Source: an uncultured Planctomycetia bacterium (lineage in GTDB: Bacteria; Omnitrophota; Gorgyraeia; Tantalellales; Tantalellaceae). Taken from it: a stretch of DNA of 64,000 nucleotides. Position 1 is the stretch's first letter; each line of letters begins with the position of its first letter. Both the position numbers and the translations under genes were made by a program. Below the pieces are notes generated by a model. The model was not told the DNA's origin and searched no databases. It saw only the letters and a program-made list of their open reading frames with translations. The stretch covers positions 135,701 to 199,700 of the forward strand of contig CAZGQR010000002.1 in assembly GCA_964527765.1 (NCBI GenBank), in the 5' to 3' direction. Below, one piece after another: positions 9,001 to 52,837 of the stretch.

Positions 9001-12000
9001 TTAGCCGCCGAAACAAAAAGCATCAGGCTTTATGAATCCAGGTTAAGAAGAAGAATGGGCGCGGATGTTCGGGAGGTATCTGTCCGCAGGGCTGCGGTAA
9101 CGGCACTGGGTCTTCTTTACGCGGCATTGATCGACCACGGGAGGAAAATCGATGTTTCGATGCTGGAACAGAGGTTAAAGGATCCCGATATGCAGGTTTC
9201 CGAAGCCGCGGCGAACGCGTTAAGCTCTGTCTATGTGGCTCAGATCAACGCCAAAGGGGATGTCGATATATCCGCATTGGAACAAAGACTGAATGCCGAT
9301 CGTCACCTCGTCCGCGAAAAGGCAATAAAAGCCCTGGGGCCGGTCTACAGGGCCTTGATCGAAAAAGGGAAGCAGGTCGATCTATCCGATCTAAAGAAAA
9401 TGCTGGGGAATGCCTGCTACTGGCAGGTCCGCAGGGCCGCAACAACGGCGCTGGGCCTTGTTTACGTTTCCCTGATCGAACAGGGAAGAAAGGAAGAGAT
9501 CGATCTACCGCTGTTGAGGGAGATGCTGAATGATATAGACCTGGGCATTCGCAGGGTCGCGGTCAGCGCGGTGGGGGAAGTTTATGCTGCCCTGATCAGG
9601 CAGGGAGAAAAGGTTGATTTTTCCGATATCGAGGAGAAATTGAACAGGTATGACGAAGAGCTCCGCAGGCGCGCGGCAGAACAGCTCTCCCTTATCCATG
9701 ACGCGCTGGAGGGAAGAGATAGGGAAACCGATCTATCCTCTCCGGAGGAAACAGGCCCCGCCGGTATCGCGGGGATAGAGTCCGGCATCATCCTGGATCA
9801 GGATTATGCAAAATACCTATTCTGGACAAGAGAGAAGCTTCCCTACCACGAAGCGGTCATAGATGAATATCTGGCGTCCTCCCAGCCTCAGATATTCATA
9901 AGTGATCTGAAGCGCCGGGCCGAACGGTGCGTCCGGAAAGGGTTTGATCCCGAGGACCGGAGACAGCTGTGGCTTGCCTTTGTCGGAGCGAAGCTGAACG
10001 GGATAGACATTACGCATCATGATTTTACTGAACGGGTTGAAAGATTGGTCGAATTCGATGAAAAACACCCCGGTTATTTTTCCGACCTTTTCGGCAAGAA
10101 CAAGAAACTTAAAGCGATAGAGATAGCTGCCGGCGAGACACACGTCGTGGACACAAGCGAAGTCGATCATGCGGTCCTGGATGCCCATCTGGAAGAACTG
10201 TCAAGTATAAAGGAAAGGGTGGACAGTTGCCGGTGGCTTTCGGAAGATTTCCCGAAGCATAAATACTTCAACCTGCGAAACCTGTATTACCAGTTAAAAC
10301 GCGAGCAGGCGAGACAGGCGGGAGAGTACACCGGCGGAAAGTTTTTCATAATATTACCTTCGGAAGACCGGATGAGGGAAGAGATCGCCGGGAACAGGAA
10401 ACTTTTCTACAGGATCGTTTTCAAGGCGGCGTATCTCCGTCTGGGCGATAGGGAAATATCGGGAAATTGTCTTGAGCTGATGCGGGACCTGGTAATAAGC
10501 GATATTCTGTCGGATGATGCCATGAAAGGACAGCTTCATTCCTCAGATCCCGAGACCAGGGTAACCGCGCTTAAGGTCTTCTATGAGGATTACAAGAACC
10601 ACCTGCCGGATGCCTCGGGAATAGGCATGGAAAAAGTCAGGGGCCTGCAAAAAGCGCTGGATGAACTGTCCGGGGAAATATACGCCGAAATGGCCAAGAT
10701 AAAGATCGTCCGCCGGAAAAGGCGCGAGACCTATCGCCTGATCCCGCAAGGATTTTTAAGCGTCTTTCGCGGGAGAGCCGGCATTATCGACTGCTCCTTT
10801 GACGCGGAATATCACGGTTCAGCTTTTACCCGGGCGATGCATGAGGATACGGGTTATTATTTTGTTTATAACAAAAAGCTGAAGGGATACGTGGGGCTGT
10901 GCGAAGGCCTGACGGAAAAAGGCGAAAAGGTCCTGACCGTAGATACCATTAATTCTCCCTCCCTGGACGGCGAGGAGATGCTGATCAATCTGTTCGTGGA
11001 ATTGGAAGAGGCGGCCAGAGAGCTGGGATGCAAGGGGATCGCCCTGCCGGAGAACATGGTCCGCTCCTTTAATTTTGATAACAAATACACCATTTCCGGC
11101 ATGGATGCGTACAGGAAAGCCAGGCCCATAAAGGTGGTTCCCGTGCATTCGAGCAGCTGGAAACGGCTTGCCGATACATTCGGGAAAGATTCATATAATT
11201 CTATGGAAAGCGGCAGGTTCAAGCTGCTTGATCTTGATTCCCTGCGCCCTCCCGCTCCGGTCAGCAAGAGCTATGAAGACGGCGACATCGGGATAGAACA
11301 GGTAGATGCCCGGGGCTGGCCGGAAATAAAAGACGACATAATGAAGGTGGAAGAAGAGTCCTTTACCGGTCCCCTGAGACAGACCGAGGAGGATATCTCG
11401 GAGACCTTTGAGGACCCTGATTCCATTTGCCTGGTCCTGAAGGATAAGGGCGCAATAGTCGGTTACATGATGGGAGGTCCCCTGGAGGACTATTATTACC
11501 TGGCCGGAATAGAGGAAGACCCCGGCTATGGCGAAGAAAATACCGTTTATATCGAGTCCATTGCCCTGTTGCGGCCATATCAAAGGTCGGGATTAGGCAA
11601 AAAACTCAGAAATAAATTCCTTGATATTGCTCAGCAGAGAGGGTACCGGCAGGTCAGCGGCCATATAAGAGAGGAAGTGGCCCGGAGCAGGGGGGATAAC
11701 ATACTGGGCGCATTCGGGGAATGGCAGGGGACGGACACCACTTTTTGTTATTACAGTAACCCCATCAGATCGAAAAAGGCGGAGAAAAAGCACGCGCTGC
11801 GCCTGATCTCGGAACTCGTCACCAGATCGCAGGATCATGACTGGGAAGCGGCCGACCGCGCGGGGGAACTTCCCGACTTGAAAGGCCTTTTGCTGGGGGC
11901 GACCGACGGGCACGGAAGGATCACGTTCCGGCCGGTCAGGAACTATCCGTTCGAATGGGCCATGCTCGGTTCCGAGGAAAAGGGGTGGGAGGCTGTTGTT

Positions 12001-35350: not shown

Positions 35351-35974
35351 ATGAACAATAAACCGATCAAAGCCATATTTTTTGACCTTGGCAACGTCAT
35401 CGTCGGCGTGGATCCGGAAGCGGCCGGCAGGAAGTACCACGCCCGCTGTAAGGCGGAAGAGGACGAGATCCTCGATTATATCAGGGATTCGGATAACATG
35501 AACAGGTACCAGCGGGGGAAGCTGACCTCTTCGCAATTTTACAATAAGACCTGCAGAGCTTTAAGAATGGATATGGCTTTCAATGAATTTTACGGCGTAT
35601 GGAACAGCATGTTTTATCCATACCCGGAGACAGAAGAAATCATAAGGGCCGTCAGGAAAGATTACCCGGACATTAAACTTATCCTCGTGTCCGACACGAA
35701 CGAAGCGCATTACGAATTCATAAAACAGCAGTACAGGGTCCTGGACCTTCTGGATGCGTGCATATTATCGTACGAAGTGGGAAGGCTTAAGCCGCATCCG
35801 GAGGTATTCAACAGGGCATTAAACGCCGCCGGCAGCATTCCCAGGGATACGTTCTATACCGATGACCGCCGGGACTACATTGACGCCGCCAGGATCATGG
35901 GCATCCGCGCTTTTCAATTTACCGGCCAGGAGCAGTTGAGGGAACAGCTGGCCAGGTGCGGGGTCCGCGTTTAA
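35351..35974 (+). CDS. HAD-superfamily hydrolase (subfamily IA-like); motif I reads FDLGNV (DxG rather than DxD)
   Basis: IKAIFFDLGNVIV.., ..LVSDTNEAH.., ..FYTDDRRDYIDAARIMG.. (motif III/IV-like). Confidence 0.65.
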   Translation: MNNKPIKAIFFDLGNVIVGVDPEAAGRKYHARCKAEEDEILDYIRDSDNMNRYQRGKLTSSQFYNKTCRALRMDMAFNEFYGVWNSMFYPYPETEEIIRAVRKDYPDIKLILVSDTNEAHYEFIKQQYRVLDLLDACILSYEVGRLKPHPEVFNRALNAAGSIPRDTFYTDDRRDYIDAARIMGIRAFQFTGQEQLREQLARCGVRV

Positions 35975-36867
35975 TCCGAATACCCCATTTCCCTGAGGGC
36001 CCGGGGATCTTTTTTCCACTTTTCGTGGACCTTCACCCAGAGATCGAGATACACGTGCCTTGACAGGAGGCGCTCTATGTCGGCGCGGGCGAGTTGGCCG
36101 ATCCTTTTCATCATCCTGCCGTCCTTGCCGATGACAATGGATTTTTGGGAGGCGCGTTCCACAAAGACCGTCGCGTGGATATTCAGCACTCCGCTTGTCT
36201 CATCCTCGCGCATTTCATCGATGACCACCGCGACCGAGTGGGGGATCTCCTCGTAGGTTTCCGTCAGTATCTTTTCCCTGATGATCTCCCGGACCAGGAA
36301 TAGCTCGCTCTTGTCGGTCAGCTGGTCCTCGGGGTAGAGAAAAGGGCCTTCGGGCAGGTAGGATTTTATTGTTTCCAGGAGCCTGTCCACGTCACCTTCA
36401 TCGAGCGCGCACATGGGGACGATCTCGCTGAAGGGATACAGTTTAGAGGCCTTTTCCATAATGGGCAGGAGAAGCCGTTTATCCTTCACTTTATCGGCCT
36501 TGTTGATCACGAAGATGACCTTTTTACCTTTTTTCGGATCGGGCAGGCGGGCGAAGATATTCTTGTCGTCTTTGTTGAACGCGGTCCTTTTCTCGGTAAT
36601 GAACAGGATTATGTCCGATTCCATCAGTGAGGACTGAGCGCGGGAAAGCATCATCTTTCCAAGAAGGTCATGCGGTTTGTGTATCCCGGGGGTATCGATA
36701 AAGATTATCTGGAAGCCCCTCTCGGTGAGTATGCCGCGTATGACGTCGCGGGTAGTCTCCGGTTTTTTACTGATGATGGCGACCTTTTCTTTTAGAAAGC
36801 CGTTCAGCAGTGTCGATTTCCCCACGTTCGGTTGTCCTGATATGGCAACGATCCCGGATCTTTGCAT
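35971..36867 (-). CDS. era: GTPase Era (GTP-binding domain plus C-terminal KH domain)
   Basis: GIVAISGQPNVGKSTLLN, TTRDVIRGI, DTPGIHKP, NKADKV; C-terminal KH-like region; 4-nt overlap with the HAD gene on the opposite strand. Confidence 0.9.
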   Translation of the reverse strand: MQRSGIVAISGQPNVGKSTLLNGFLKEKVAIISKKPETTRDVIRGILTERGFQIIFIDTPGIHKPHDLLGKMMLSRAQSSLMESDIILFITEKRTAFNKDDKNIFARLPDPKKGKKVIFVINKADKVKDKRLLLPIMEKASKLYPFSEIVPMCALDEGDVDRLLETIKSYLPEGPFLYPEDQLTDKSELFLVREIIREKILTETYEEIPHSVAVVIDEMREDETSGVLNIHATVFVERASQKSIVIGKDGRMMKRIGQLARADIERLLSRHVYLDLWVKVHEKWKKDPRALREMGYSD

Positions 36868-36899
36868 GATTAGAATAATTATAACACATTTCCCAACTA

Positions 36900-37110
36900 G
36901 TAGGGACGTTTCTCATTTTGTTCCTAGACCGTGAATGGTTTTAATCCCAGACCTGTCCCCAATTTTGTTCTCAGACCTGTCCCCCCCTTTTTTTAAGTAT
37001 TGGGGACAGGTCTAGGATTGAGTGCGGGGACAAGTCTGGGATTGAATTTGGGACAGGTCCAAGTTCAAAATTTTTTACGGTCTGAGTTCAATTTGAGAAA
37101 CGTCCCTTGT
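36900..37110. repeat. Complex ~210-bp imperfect palindrome built from a 22-bp unit (ttttRWTCyCAGACCTGTCCCC): three direct copies followed by three inverted copies, enclosed by an outer inverted pair (gggacgtttctca ... tgagaaacgtccc). MITE-like element or operator array in the divergent era/mgtE intergenic region.
   Basis: Direct copies at ~36917-36931 (partial), 36940-36961, 36965-36986; inverted copies ggggacaggtctaggattga (37013-37032), ggggacaagtctgggattga (37026-37045), gggacaggtccaagttcaaaa (37050-37070); outer arms 36903-36915 / 37093-37105; further tandem cgtcccttgtaa x2 at 37101-37124. Confidence 0.7.
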
Positions 37111-37133
37111 AACTCGTCCCTTGTAAAAAAAGA

Positions 37134-37161
37134 TTGGCAATTTGGATTTTAGCCGTATAAT
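37134..37161 (+). promoter_or_regulatory. Candidate sigma70-like promoter for mgtE (TTGGCA-N16-TATAAT), ~35 nt upstream of the start codon
   Basis: ttggca at 37134-37139, tataat at 37156-37161. Confidence 0.4.
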
Positions 37162-37195: not shown

Positions 37196-38569
37196 ATGGT
37201 TGAGCGCAGAAAAAACCCCAAAAAGCGGAAAGCGCGGACTATCGAGGAACGGGTCCGGCAGCTTAACGATCTCCTGGAAAAGAACAGGGACGAGGACATG
37301 CGGCATTTCCTCCATGAGATGGCTCCCGAGGATATCGCTGAAGTACTGGGAGAATTTTCCGCAGAAGATAAGTTAAGGATATTCAATTTTCTCGATATCG
37401 GGAATGCTGCCGTCGTTCTCGACGATACCGACCCCCAGAGCCGGCTTCAGATCCTCCAGAAGCTCGAGAGCGATAAACTGGCCAGGGTCCTTGATGAGAT
37501 GCCCGTTGATGAAGCGGCTGATATTATCGAGGAAGTGCCGGAAAAGGACAGGGAAGACATCCTGGACCTGATGGAGGAAAAGGATGCCGAAGAGGTCGAG
37601 GAGATCCTCGGCTATCCGGAGGACAGTGCCGGCCGGGTCATGAACCCCGAGTTTGTTTCTGTCAGGGAGAACAATGATGTCGAGGACGCCATCAGGCATA
37701 TCCGGAGCCTGGAAGTCGATGAGCAGGTTTTTTATGTTTACGTCATGGATGAGGATGAGAAGCTCCGCGGGGTGGTCCCCATCAGAAAACTATTGACCGC
37801 GCCGAAAGGTACCATCATAAAAGATATCCTGGAGGAAGATATCCGCGCCATTCTTGTCGATGAAGATCAGGAGAAAGCCGCCCTTCTGATGAAGAAATAC
37901 GATCTTTTCTCTCTGCCGGTCGTGGATAATGAGGGACGCCTGGTCGGGCGTATAACCGCCGATGATATCATAGATGTCATGGACGAAGAACGCGGGGAAG
38001 ATATAAGTAAAATGACCGGTACCATTGAAGAAGAACAGGGCACCGAGACGACGTTAAGGGCGACGCAGAACAGGCTTCCCTGGCTTATCACGTGCATGCT
38101 GGGAAGTATCATCACGGGGCTTGTCATACAGATGTACAGGATAACGCTTGCGGAAACCCTGGCGCTCATTTCGTTCATCCCGGTCATCACCGCGACCGGA
38201 GGGAATTCAGGGGTCCAGGCCTCGACTGTCGTGGTCAGGGAAATAGCCCTCGGGTCCATGGACTTTTCCCGGGTCGGGGAGGAAATATGGAGGCAGCTTA
38301 AGATAGCGCTCGGTCTCGGTCTTATGTGCGGGATAGTGCTGAGCATCCTGGCGAATATCTGGGTGAAAAACAGCATGATAGGCCTGATCGTGGGGCTGTC
38401 GATCTTTCTGGTCGTGGTCTGGTCGAACTTTGTCGGCGTGCTGACACCTGTCATCTTCAAAAAAATACATCTGGATCCGGCAATATCCTCCGGCCCGCTT
38501 ATTACCACGCTGAATGATATAATAGGGGTGTTTATCTATCTGAGCATCGCGACTTTTCTTTTGACATGA
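37196..38569 (+). CDS. mgtE: Magnesium transporter MgtE (MgtE_N domain, CBS pair, C-terminal TM domain)
   Basis: PEDIAEVLGEFSAEDKLRIFNFLD, tandem CBS-like segments, IPVITATGGNSGVQASTVVVREIALG, 5 C-terminal TM helices. Confidence 0.9.
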   Translation: MVERRKNPKKRKARTIEERVRQLNDLLEKNRDEDMRHFLHEMAPEDIAEVLGEFSAEDKLRIFNFLDIGNAAVVLDDTDPQSRLQILQKLESDKLARVLDEMPVDEAADIIEEVPEKDREDILDLMEEKDAEEVEEILGYPEDSAGRVMNPEFVSVRENNDVEDAIRHIRSLEVDEQVFYVYVMDEDEKLRGVVPIRKLLTAPKGTIIKDILEEDIRAILVDEDQEKAALLMKKYDLFSLPVVDNEGRLVGRITADDIIDVMDEERGEDISKMTGTIEEEQGTETTLRATQNRLPWLITCMLGSIITGLVIQMYRITLAETLALISFIPVITATGGNSGVQASTVVVREIALGSMDFSRVGEEIWRQLKIALGLGLMCGIVLSILANIWVKNSMIGLIVGLSIFLVVVWSNFVGVLTPVIFKKIHLDPAISSGPLITTLNDIIGVFIYLSIATFLLT

Positions 38570-38660: not shown

Positions 38661-38858
38661 ATGGGAAAGGTTTTGAGCTTATTGATCGGAGCGGTCGTGG
38701 CGCTTGTCGGGTTGATCCTTCTTATTGCCTGGTGGTATGAACTTTTATTCATTCTAAGGGGAGTGGTACCTCTAATGCTTATACTGGGCGGAGTGATAGC
38801 CGTCATAGCGGGTTTCAGCGAGCTCAAGGATGTCCTGAAAAAGAAGGAAGGAAAATAA
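38661..38858 (+). CDS. Hypothetical small membrane protein (65 aa, two TM helices)
   Basis: GGAGGTGA RBS; MGKVLSLLIGAVVALVGLILLIAWWYELLFILRGVVPLMLILGGVIAVIAGF. Confidence 0.5.
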   Translation: MGKVLSLLIGAVVALVGLILLIAWWYELLFILRGVVPLMLILGGVIAVIAGFSELKDVLKKKEGK

Positions 38859-51754: not shown

Positions 51755-52837
51755 ATGGCCGGAAAGGAGATGCGTTTGCCCTCAAAATATTTTCGAGCGT
51801 CGAAGATCTTCATTTTTCTGTTCATATTCCTGACAGCATCTCTATGGAGCTTTTCACCGTCGTTCGCTATTGACGAAGAAGTGATCGACAGGTACCCGTC
51901 CGCCGAACCTCCCCCTCAGGAAATGGAAAAAAGGGAAGAGAAGGAACACGTCTTTTATAAGCCGAAAGAGCGCCTTGAGGTCACCGCGTTCGCGGATGTG
52001 CAGCAGGGATACGATAACAACGTGGACCTTGACTCGGAACACCACAGGGACGGTTTCCTTCAGGGAACGGCGAACCTGGATGTCGGCTATGAGGCAATGG
52101 ACAACCTGAAGCTGAAGGGCGGCATTGATATCTTTGAGACGATCTATTACAAGTATAACGTCAACAACCTGTCGGATATCTCGCCCTACGCGGGATTCGA
52201 TCTTGAGATCAGCCCGGAGATCATCTCCCGCAATCGTTTTATTTTTGATTATTTTGCGTACCCGAACGAGAAGGAGAGCACGTATGCGGGGATCGCGCTC
52301 ACGTCTTACCTTCGCCACTATATCTCGGAGGATATCTATCATGAGGGAGGGTTTGAGTACCTGAGGCGCTGGTACCCGGACCGGAAGAGATTTCTCTCAA
52401 CTGCCGTAAAAGGCAATAAAGACCGCGTCGACAGCCGCTACAGGGTCAAGTACAATGTCGGCGTTTATACGGAGCGTTTTCTCGTAAAGGTGAGCAACCA
52501 GCTGAGCTATAACGATTCGAATGATCTGTACCAGGACTATTACGATTACTGGATGTACAGGCTGAAACCGTCGGTGATGTTCTTTTTCACGGATAAGTTT
52601 TACACGGACGTCAGCCTTATCTACAAATATACATGGTACAGGAACCGCACCACCACGCAGGACGCCAGCAAGAAAGAGCGCGATAATACCTACATGCTGA
52701 ACACGTCGCTATATTACGATATTTCAAAGAACATCACGTTCGGCGTCACGTATTCTTACAGCGAGAACGTGTCCAACGATCCGTTCCAGAAATATTCCGA
52801 CAGTATCGTGTCAGGCGGGATCTATTACAGTTTCTGA
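51755..52837 (+). CDS. Putative outer-membrane beta-barrel protein (hypothetical)
   Basis: N-terminal hydrophobic signal-like segment IFIFLFIFLTASLWSFSPSFA; Tyr/Asn-rich alternating amphipathic strands; C-terminal ..SGGIYYSF aromatic terminus typical of OMPs. Confidence 0.45.
   Translation: MAGKEMRLPSKYFRASKIFIFLFIFLTASLWSFSPSFAIDEEVIDRYPSAEPPPQEMEKREEKEHVFYKPKERLEVTAFADVQQGYDNNVDLDSEHHRDGFLQGTANLDVGYEAMDNLKLKGGIDIFETIYYKYNVNNLSDISPYAGFDLEISPEIISRNRFIFDYFAYPNEKESTYAGIALTSYLRHYISEDIYHEGGFEYLRRWYPDRKRFLSTAVKGNKDRVDSRYRVKYNVGVYTERFLVKVSNQLSYNDSNDLYQDYYDYWMYRLKPSVMFFFTDKFYTDVSLIYKYTWYRNRTTTQDASKKERDNTYMLNTSLYYDISKNITFGVTYSYSENVSNDPFQKYSDSIVSGGIYYSF

Follow-up and report, generated by a model that had tools for sequence, protein, structure and literature searches.

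The array of direct and inverted repeats between era and mgtE is very probably a miniature, non-autonomous mobile element, an internal-deletion derivative of a RAYT/TIRYT-type element whose gene encodes a 159-aa HUH/Y1 enzyme (REPIN-like, a "TIR dimer"). It lies at positions 36902–37107 of the window, by which we mean the whole 64,000-nucleotide stretch of DNA that was analyzed, and is an ordinary representative of an established class, resembling REPINs in layout and logic. The preliminary description had offered a MITE, an operator or a cruciform-forming element as possible readings; the occurrence of related copies at unrelated loci, and of the same ends around a Y1 gene, speaks for the first of these.

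The element consists of units of 23–24 nt with the core YAGACCTGTCCCC, three in its left arm and four in its right arm. Its boundaries, AGGGACGTTTCTCA (left) and TGAGAAACGTCCCT (right), form the outer inverted pair noted at the outset, which is 14 nt long. Three direct units followed by three inverted ones had been described. The direct units are present as stated; the right arm has a fourth, degenerate unit at its outer end. The features of the element and its surroundings are as follows.

35971–36867, minus strand: era (GTPase with KH domain; Pfam MMR_HSR1 and KH_2), the left neighbor, reading away from the element.
36878–36886, minus strand: putative −10 box of era with TG extension, TGTTATAAT, assigned from the sequence.
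36902–37107, no strand assigned: the whole element, a 206-bp imperfect palindrome, non-autonomous, missing from the orthologous spacer of relatives.
36902–36915, plus strand: left terminal inverted repeat, AGGGACGTTTCTCA; the gene-less copies L060 and L093 and the left flank of the Y1 gene of L125 have this terminus too.
36916–36986, plus strand: left arm with three direct units of the left type (repeat families D1 and D2).
36916–36938 (degenerate, TAGACCGTG), 36939–36962 and 36963–36986, plus strand: the individual left-arm units.
36987–37001, no strand assigned: hairpin apex or loop, comprising a C-run, a T-run and AAGTAT.
37002–37093, minus strand: right arm with four inverted units of the right type (repeat families D3, D4 and D6).
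37002–37025, 37026–37049, 37050–37073 and 37074–37093 (the last degenerate), minus strand: the individual right-arm units.
37094–37107, minus strand: right terminal inverted repeat, TGAGAAACGTCCCT, also present in L060, L093 and L125.
37101–37112 and 37115–37126, plus strand: tandem CGTCCCTTGTAA dimer (family D5), two exact copies with a 14-bp period.
37125–37161, plus strand: ancestral control region of mgtE, with an A-tract ahead of TTGGCA-16-TATAAT (37134–37161).
37196–38569, plus strand: mgtE (Pfam MgtE_N, CBS and MgtE), the right neighbor, reading away from the element.

The two non-degenerate units of the left arm have the core CAGACCTGTCCCC and are separated by the T-rich spacers typical of the left type (TTTTGTTC / TTTTAATC), whereas the spacers of the right type are GTTCAA and GATTGA. 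The motif GGGGACAG occurs in the units starting at 37002 and 37026, with its reverse complement at 36953–36960 and 36977–36984. The left terminus itself looks like a variant of the unit core, with GGGAC-GTTTC replacing GGGAC-AGGTC. No stem forms within a unit; pairing is with the opposite arm only, and the element as a whole is a single inverted repeat, with outer arms at 36902–36964 and 37045–37107 (63 nt, 75% complementary) and further inner arms. No GTAG tag is present in the window element, and CGTC occurs only in the terminal ...AAACGTCCC. The tandem CGTCCCTTGTAA dimer, which had been recognized correctly, duplicates the last six nucleotides of the element together with six nucleotides of flank. 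In L060, similar duplications are found at both junctions: TGTCAATA stands twice just outside the left end (10326–10341) and TCCCTGA twice at the right (10593–10612). Such short tandem duplications at the junctions may be a trace left by the mechanism of insertion or may have arisen by slippage.

The repeats exceed chance expectation. A 13-mer core with up to two mismatches matched six times in the 64-kb window against 1.39 matches expected, a count that none of 100 shuffles reached, and the four best matches all lie within the element. Folding of both strands, which had been proposed as a check, yielded z-scores of −12.8 for the plus strand (a hairpin with an RNA MFE of −118.5 kcal/mol, compared to −61.6 ± 4.4 for shuffled sequences) and −9.8 for the minus-strand hairpin; overall, values for the window element ranged from −12.8 to −15.7, and L060 (−12.5) and L093 (−13.4) folded equally strongly. 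The element is not an assembly artefact, being identical in six assemblies obtained independently for this species, except for the C-run at its apex (7 or 8 C). The C-run, at 36981–36987, is its sole polymorphism among the assemblies: L001, L005 and L006 have 8 C, and the window shares its 7 C with L002, L003 and L004. The six assemblies represent one population, and their sequence identity is therefore uninformative with respect to selection.

A scan against Rfam gave no M-box and no other family; the sole matches, to generic long-hairpin miRNA models, fell far short of the gathering scores, and the M-box/ykoK model RF00380 had no match in the mgtE leader at the gathering threshold or at E ≤ 1. 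As the element moreover lies upstream of the mgtE promoter, a riboswitch can be rejected, in agreement with the original argument against an M-box. A resemblance to the T-arm of tRNAs (GGATTCAATCC) is superficial and found no tRNA or Rfam support. The 64-kb window contains neither a second copy of the element nor a Y1 gene, and matches to solo termini elsewhere in it are at chance level, the one at 52046 being located in coding sequence.

Comparison with related genomes, which had likewise been suggested, shows that the element was inserted into the spacer between the divergent promoters of era and mgtE. The synteny UvrD-NUDIX-HAD-era / mgtE-small ORF-...-purH is kept in relatives. In two of these, L009 (MgtE 86% identical) and L250 (76%), the era-mgtE spacer measures only 100 and 99 nt, respectively, lacks the element and contains just two back-to-back promoters, that of mgtE consisting of an A-tract and ATTGGCAATTnnnnTTTTAnnnGTATAAT. 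In the alignment, the roughly 230 additional bases of the window fall exactly between the two promoters; the relatives keep both promoters in so short a spacer without the element, which is therefore an insertion and not an ancestral part of the locus. The window comes from a Candidatus Omnitrophota bacterium; all MgtE homologues we found belong to Omnitrophota, the nearest named relative being Ca. Makaraimicrobium thalassicum with 80% MgtE identity.

Relatives conserve the mgtE control region whether or not they carry the element. Its promoter, which the preliminary description had placed just downstream of the array, is found there intact, with its −35 hexamer 27 nt from the element. On the other side, the element abuts the −10 region of era. 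The era promoter of L009 reads TTGCAA-17-TATAAT on the minus strand; no −35/−10 pair of this type was detected in the window, where the former position of the era −35 is filled by the left end of the element. Judging from these sequences, the TG-extended −10 may compensate for the lost −35. The element would be an untranscribed passenger between divergent promoters, whose arrival displaced the old −35 of era and left a TG-extended −10 in place.

The start of era merits a remark of its own. Public assemblies place it 14 codons downstream (284 aa, compared to the 298-aa ORF in the window), and because gene callers choose this start, the exact era sequence has no database record. The upstream ATG is only about 10 nt from the −10 box, so that use of this start would imply a leaderless mRNA or one with a very short leader. 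On the other side of the locus, directly downstream of mgtE, a 65-aa ORF (38661–38858, plus strand) has a precomputed Pfam match to MamI (PF26391, a magnetosome protein family) and occupies the same position in all relatives examined (L001, L007, L010, L250, L251); it could either reflect magnetosome biology in Omnitrophota or merely be a small membrane protein.

Two other relatives have different filler in the same spacer. In the Ca. Makaraimicrobium-like relative with 80% identity (L010, 2288–2312 and 2378–2416; also L011) it contains other GC-rich palindromes, ATTGGGGACATGCCCCCGGGGGACAC and GGGGGGATATGCCCCCGGGGGCATGTCCCCCC. These share ATTGGGGACA with the window units, so that repeats of this kind seem to land repeatedly in the era-mgtE spacer. 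In L251, a relative with 74% identity, the spacer is 209 nt long and carries TTTCAGGGACGGCAGGGC at 1855–1875, which resembles the solo terminus AGGGACGG and may be a decayed remnant of a terminus of the family. In a relative with 87% identity, the contigs L007 and L008 end (position 1) 12 nt upstream of mgtE, and these ends look like assembly breaks at repeats.

Copies of the unit had been recommended for a search elsewhere, and their discovery at other loci favors a mobile element. A metagenome scan for two adjacent cores yielded at least 113 loci, and in many of those listed a run of direct units precedes a run of inverted ones. L060 and L093, two of these loci, belong to a single 104-kb contig of an Omnitrophota genome, sampled in the hypersaline-sediment series that also yielded the window, and lie about 10 kb apart. 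Both are gene-less and have the termini and the left and right signatures of the window element. One has a DUF4416 gene on one side and an ArsR-feoAB operon on the other; the second lies between two co-directional genes. Like the window element, both are intergenic. In two Logan assemblies of the feoAB locus (L246 and L247, position 1), the sequence breaks or starts 9 nt inside the terminus of the element, as expected from its being a repeat. As judged by the shared termini and arm signatures, the window element belongs to a dispersed family. Its copy number can be bounded from below, with two copies on the one 104-kb contig and at least eight matches on six contigs of the metagenome-assembled genome (MAG) nzgw316; for the window's own genome, one copy is seen within the 64 kb covered. 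An exact 21-mer of the right terminus had no match among the GTDB representative genomes, so apparently neither this subfamily nor the species is represented there. At the junctions of the copies examined there was no consistent target-site duplication or target motif: some have direct flanks of 3–4 nt (ATTA in L044, AATT in L207, ATC in L093), others none.

The connection to an enzyme comes from arrays that enclose a gene. Locus L111 contains a 159-aa Y1_Tnp ORF between arrays of opposite orientation, and tblastn searches found Y1 homologues beside arrays in 11 further loci among the 113 listed. The layout [<<< Y1 >>>] is explicit in L044, L119, L046 and L022 and is also seen in L111 and L202. 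Overall, arrays with this core stand on both sides of Y1 genes in numerous metagenomes as well as in named genomes belonging to several phyla. A homologue search recovered proteins from Omnitrophota MAGs and, in addition, P0130 (159 aa, Y1_Tnp), which is 65% identical to the L111 protein and whose gene (L125) is flanked by left and right ends of the window type. Its left flank reads GGGACGTTTCTCATTTTGTTCCCAGACCGTAAATAATTTTAATCCCAGACCTGTCCCC... and its right flank ...GGGGACAGGTCCAAGTTCACATTTTCTTACGGTCTGGGTTTAATTTGAAAAACGTCCC; the inverted arms, of about 80 and 105 nt, are of the same two types as the window arms, and gene and ends together make a compact unit of about 760 bp. The left-type ends of the window, L125, L060 and L093 are 86–87% identical to one another and the right-type ends 82–91%, whereas left and right ends share only 66–79%. 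At these levels of similarity, the ends of the window element are those that flank the RAYT-like gene. In full-length elements the Y1 gene occupies the place of the window element's apex; the left flank of L125 runs on through ...GTCCCCTTTTTTAATTTTTTTGAAAG into the gene. Because the gene-less copies retain the polarity of the gene-bearing element, we consider them internal-deletion derivatives of it.

P0130 comes from sample 3300017987, which also contains the species of the window. Tetranucleotide correlations with the window were 0.886 for L125 and 0.952 for L060, compared to 0.907–0.961 for chunks of the window itself, values that fit a shared genome without discriminating against close relatives. 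The link of the window to L125 and L060 is thus one of shared sample or series, near-identical ends and compatible composition, not of physical linkage. On all 12 of its contigs (two places listed and ten similar), P0130 is found in one neighborhood, ClpB – Y1 – hypothetical – Na/H exchanger – Lon, and a second homologue, P0123, has a single context on all of its 15 contigs.

By profile and predicted fold, P0130 is closest to the RAYT of E. coli, TnpA_REP. It matches Pfam Y1_Tnp, and its best NCBIfam model is REP_Tyr_transpos (NF047646), at 71.3 bits and thus under the cutoff of 80; the IS200 model gives 21 bits against a cutoff of 55. In comparisons with a 26-sequence profile of the clade, E. 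coli TnpA_REP (4ER8) obtained an E-value of 1.7e-7, as opposed to 1e-3 for ISDra2 TnpA. An AlphaFold model (pLDDT 88.7) superimposed onto 4ER8 with a TM-score of 0.76 over all 159 residues, compared to 0.5–0.56 for the dimer subunits of IS608 and ISDra2. The HUH motif (H60, H62) is invariant and Y120, which aligns with chain position 115 of 4ER8, nearly so, at an overall sequence identity to E. coli TnpA_REP of about 13%. From the model and profile comparisons, the enzyme associated with the window family is a Y1 protein of the RAYT type. P0130 and its close relatives (156–161 aa) consist of the Y1_Tnp domain only, with no C-terminal HTH; longer, more distant homologues have a weak HTH (P0210: Sigma70_r4 / HTH_3). 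Searches of plasmids with the Y1 protein found only relatives of at most 42% identity.

The family extends beyond the window's sediment series. A scan for two adjacent cores in one genome per species returned at least 112 loci, and the matches listed (L133–L212) come from Omnitrophota, Verrucomicrobiota, a PVC-group MAG, Planctomycetes, Clostridia, Actinomycetota, Acidobacteriota, Flavobacteriales and Nitrospirales. The 11-nt core occurs in arrays across at least eight phyla (Omnitrophota, Verrucomicrobiota, Planctomycetota, Clostridia, Actinomycetota, Acidobacteriota, Bacteroidota, Nitrospirota). The Omnitrophota MAG nzgw316 shows the dispersal of the family within one genome: among the matches listed, one copy carries a Y1 gene (L202), another is a compact hairpin (L207), and solo ends stand at several places (L133, L146, L154, L162, L202b).

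Other arrangements were also seen in these scans. In human-gut and other Clostridia (L074, 3095–3231; similarly L089, L122, L144 and L190), a different subfamily has units GGGGGGACAGGTCTTAAATGAGACAAGG arranged in the opposite way (>> AT-rich ~70 nt <<), with no Y1 gene within the fetched flanks. L083 (363–514) and L107 (556–830), and also L185, L186 and L227, are purely direct arrays of 7–9 or more units with the core GACCTGTCCC, periods of 24–33 nt and no inverted partner; L083 also holds a GA microsatellite and may not be bacterial.

The location between divergent promoters, abutting one and close to the other, together with a unit period of about two helical turns, as in operator or iteron arrays, would suit a multi-site operator through which a dimeric or oligomeric regulator, bound to the 23-nt units, controls era and/or mgtE. 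We regard this as very unlikely, and reject a dedicated operator as formulated in the preliminary description: L009 and L250 retain both promoters with no unit in the spacer, the same element stands upstream of the ArsR-feoAB operon and between other genes on another contig, the same ends flank a transposase gene in L125, and no regulator gene adjoins the element. Least credible of the alternatives is a structural DNA or RNA element maintained by host selection, such as a cruciform, a supercoiling sink, an insulator or a bidirectional terminator, whose likeness to a transposon would be historical only. The hairpin potential is indeed very strong, there is a terminator-like stem with a T-run at 37042–37068, the sequence is 100% conserved over the six assemblies, and REPs are known to have been co-opted for such roles (PMC3733652). 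Against this reading, the assemblies stem from a single population and sister lineages do without the element, which, lying upstream of both promoters, should not be transcribed. The cruciform option raised originally holds as to the capacity to form a hairpin, which is a property of such mobile elements and not a separate explanation.

A third alternative is a classical MITE derived from IS200/IS605 ("PATE") and moved by a multi-copy, horizontally spreading TnpA of the IS200 type instead of a single-copy RAYT/TIRYT enzyme. The Y1 gene and its ends do form an IS-like unit, the Y1 genes of different species are found in different neighborhoods, distant relatives of the enzyme occur on plasmids, and the left terminus often has TA or CA beside it, recalling insertion 3' of a short target. 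The scores on the RAYT and IS200 models (71 and 21 bits), the best match to TnpA_REP by both profile and fold, the single contexts of P0130 and P0123 and the long terminal inverted repeats make this origin improbable, if less so than the two preceding ones.

In the RAYT/TIRYT-type derivation, the full-length element would comprise, from left to right, the terminus AGGGACGTTTC, two to three left-type units, the Y1 gene, three to four units of the right type and the terminus GAAACGTCCCT. The window copy lacks the gene and its arms abut, so that either strand can fold into a mismatched hairpin of about 100 bp. The Y1 enzyme, supplied in trans, would recognize units of the GGGGACAGGTC type as well as the distinct terminal unit, with cleavage presumably at the latter, and would cut and rejoin single-stranded DNA in the manner of E. 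coli TnpA_REP and the TnpA of IS200/IS605. By analogy with these enzymes, we infer that the element is mobilized on single-stranded DNA by HUH/Y1 chemistry in trans. More tentatively, and with the balance of probability against it, the iterated 23–24-nt GGGGACAGGTC units, together with the distinct terminal unit and the conserved asymmetry of left and right, might make up multi-site ends to which a minimal Y1 nuclease, lacking an HTH, binds as several protomers, in a layout like that of Tn7 and Mu but operated by an HUH enzyme. If so, the family would represent a widespread, largely undescribed branch of RAYT/TIRYT systems, with a mode of recognition other than the single hairpin plus GTAG solved for E. 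coli.

For annotation, the array should be labeled as a repeat or mobile-element relic, not as a regulatory site of era or mgtE. The locus and its counterparts provide a matched set of empty site, filled site, further gene-less copies and gene-bearing copy in an uncultivated phylum, and a natural insertion that replaced the −35 hexamer in the promoter of an essential gene. With its very small enzyme (159 aa) and unusually regular ends, the family should be a convenient system for studying how RAYT/TIRYT repeats are recognized and moved.

Compared with known systems, the window element has the generic features of a MITE: it is small and non-coding, has terminal inverted repeats and is related to an autonomous element. 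A text search of the literature for the core motif string returned only unrelated primer sequences. The ends of Tn7 and Mu have three to four sites of about 22 bp each, in unequal numbers on the left and right, with a distinct terminal site, and are bound by DDE transposases. The likeness to these is one of layout only, since the gene associated here encodes a Y1 HUH enzyme; we had considered multi-site DDE ends of the Tn7/Mu/IS21 kind (three versus four sites of ~22 bp) and rejected them, as the neighboring genes are Y1 transposases and no DDE gene is nearby. With IS200/IS605, the family shares the HUH/Y1 superfamily, a small autonomous unit and, presumably, single-strand DNA chemistry. It differs from them in that the ends of IS200/IS605 elements are subterminal hairpins without long terminal inverted repeats, and in the low score on the IS200 model.

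E. coli TnpA_REP (Messing et al. 2012, PMC3479197; 4ER8) is the best structural and profile match, with conserved HUH motif and aligned tyrosine, and BIMEs resemble the array in that their repeats are clustered in alternating orientation. TnpA_REP, however, recognizes a single imperfect hairpin with a 5' GTAG, and no such hairpin exists within one arm here. Like REPINs (Bertels & Rainey 2011, PMC3116915; PMC3337134; PMC5581495), the copies are non-autonomous, extragenic, dispersed hairpins of two inverted arms, occurring as doublets and singlets, and they are tied to a Y1 gene flanked by the same sequence, which in REPIN systems is found at one locus per genome; REPINs themselves number tens to hundreds per genome. 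They differ in that REPIN arms are single REP palindromes of 20–40 nt with a GTAG (or CGTC) tag, whereas the units here are iterated, not self-complementary and GTAG-less, and in that P0130 scores under the curated RAYT cutoff.

TIRtrons, or TIRYTs, are RAYT-like genes with long TIRs in place of REPs (Di Nocera et al. 2013, PMC3733652); many of their TIRs have GGGGWSAS in common and make up moderately abundant families, whose copies are single, dimeric or grouped. Quentin et al. (2018, PMC6006769) assign most TIRYTs to subclass 2.1, which carries a C-terminal HTH. This subclass is probably the counterpart of the window family, with the reservation that an enzyme of just 159 aa without a C-terminal HTH does not fit it. 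The likeness to TIRtrons lies in a RAYT-like Y1 gene between long TIRs instead of REP hairpins (L125 and other loci), in the core GGGGACAG, which fits GGGGWSAS, and in the presence of gene-less dimers (window, L060, L093, L207) along with singles in one MAG. What sets the present family apart is its occurrence in Omnitrophota and, apparently, the construction of its arms from three to four tandem units of 23–24 nt and a distinct terminal unit, with a conserved asymmetry between left and right.
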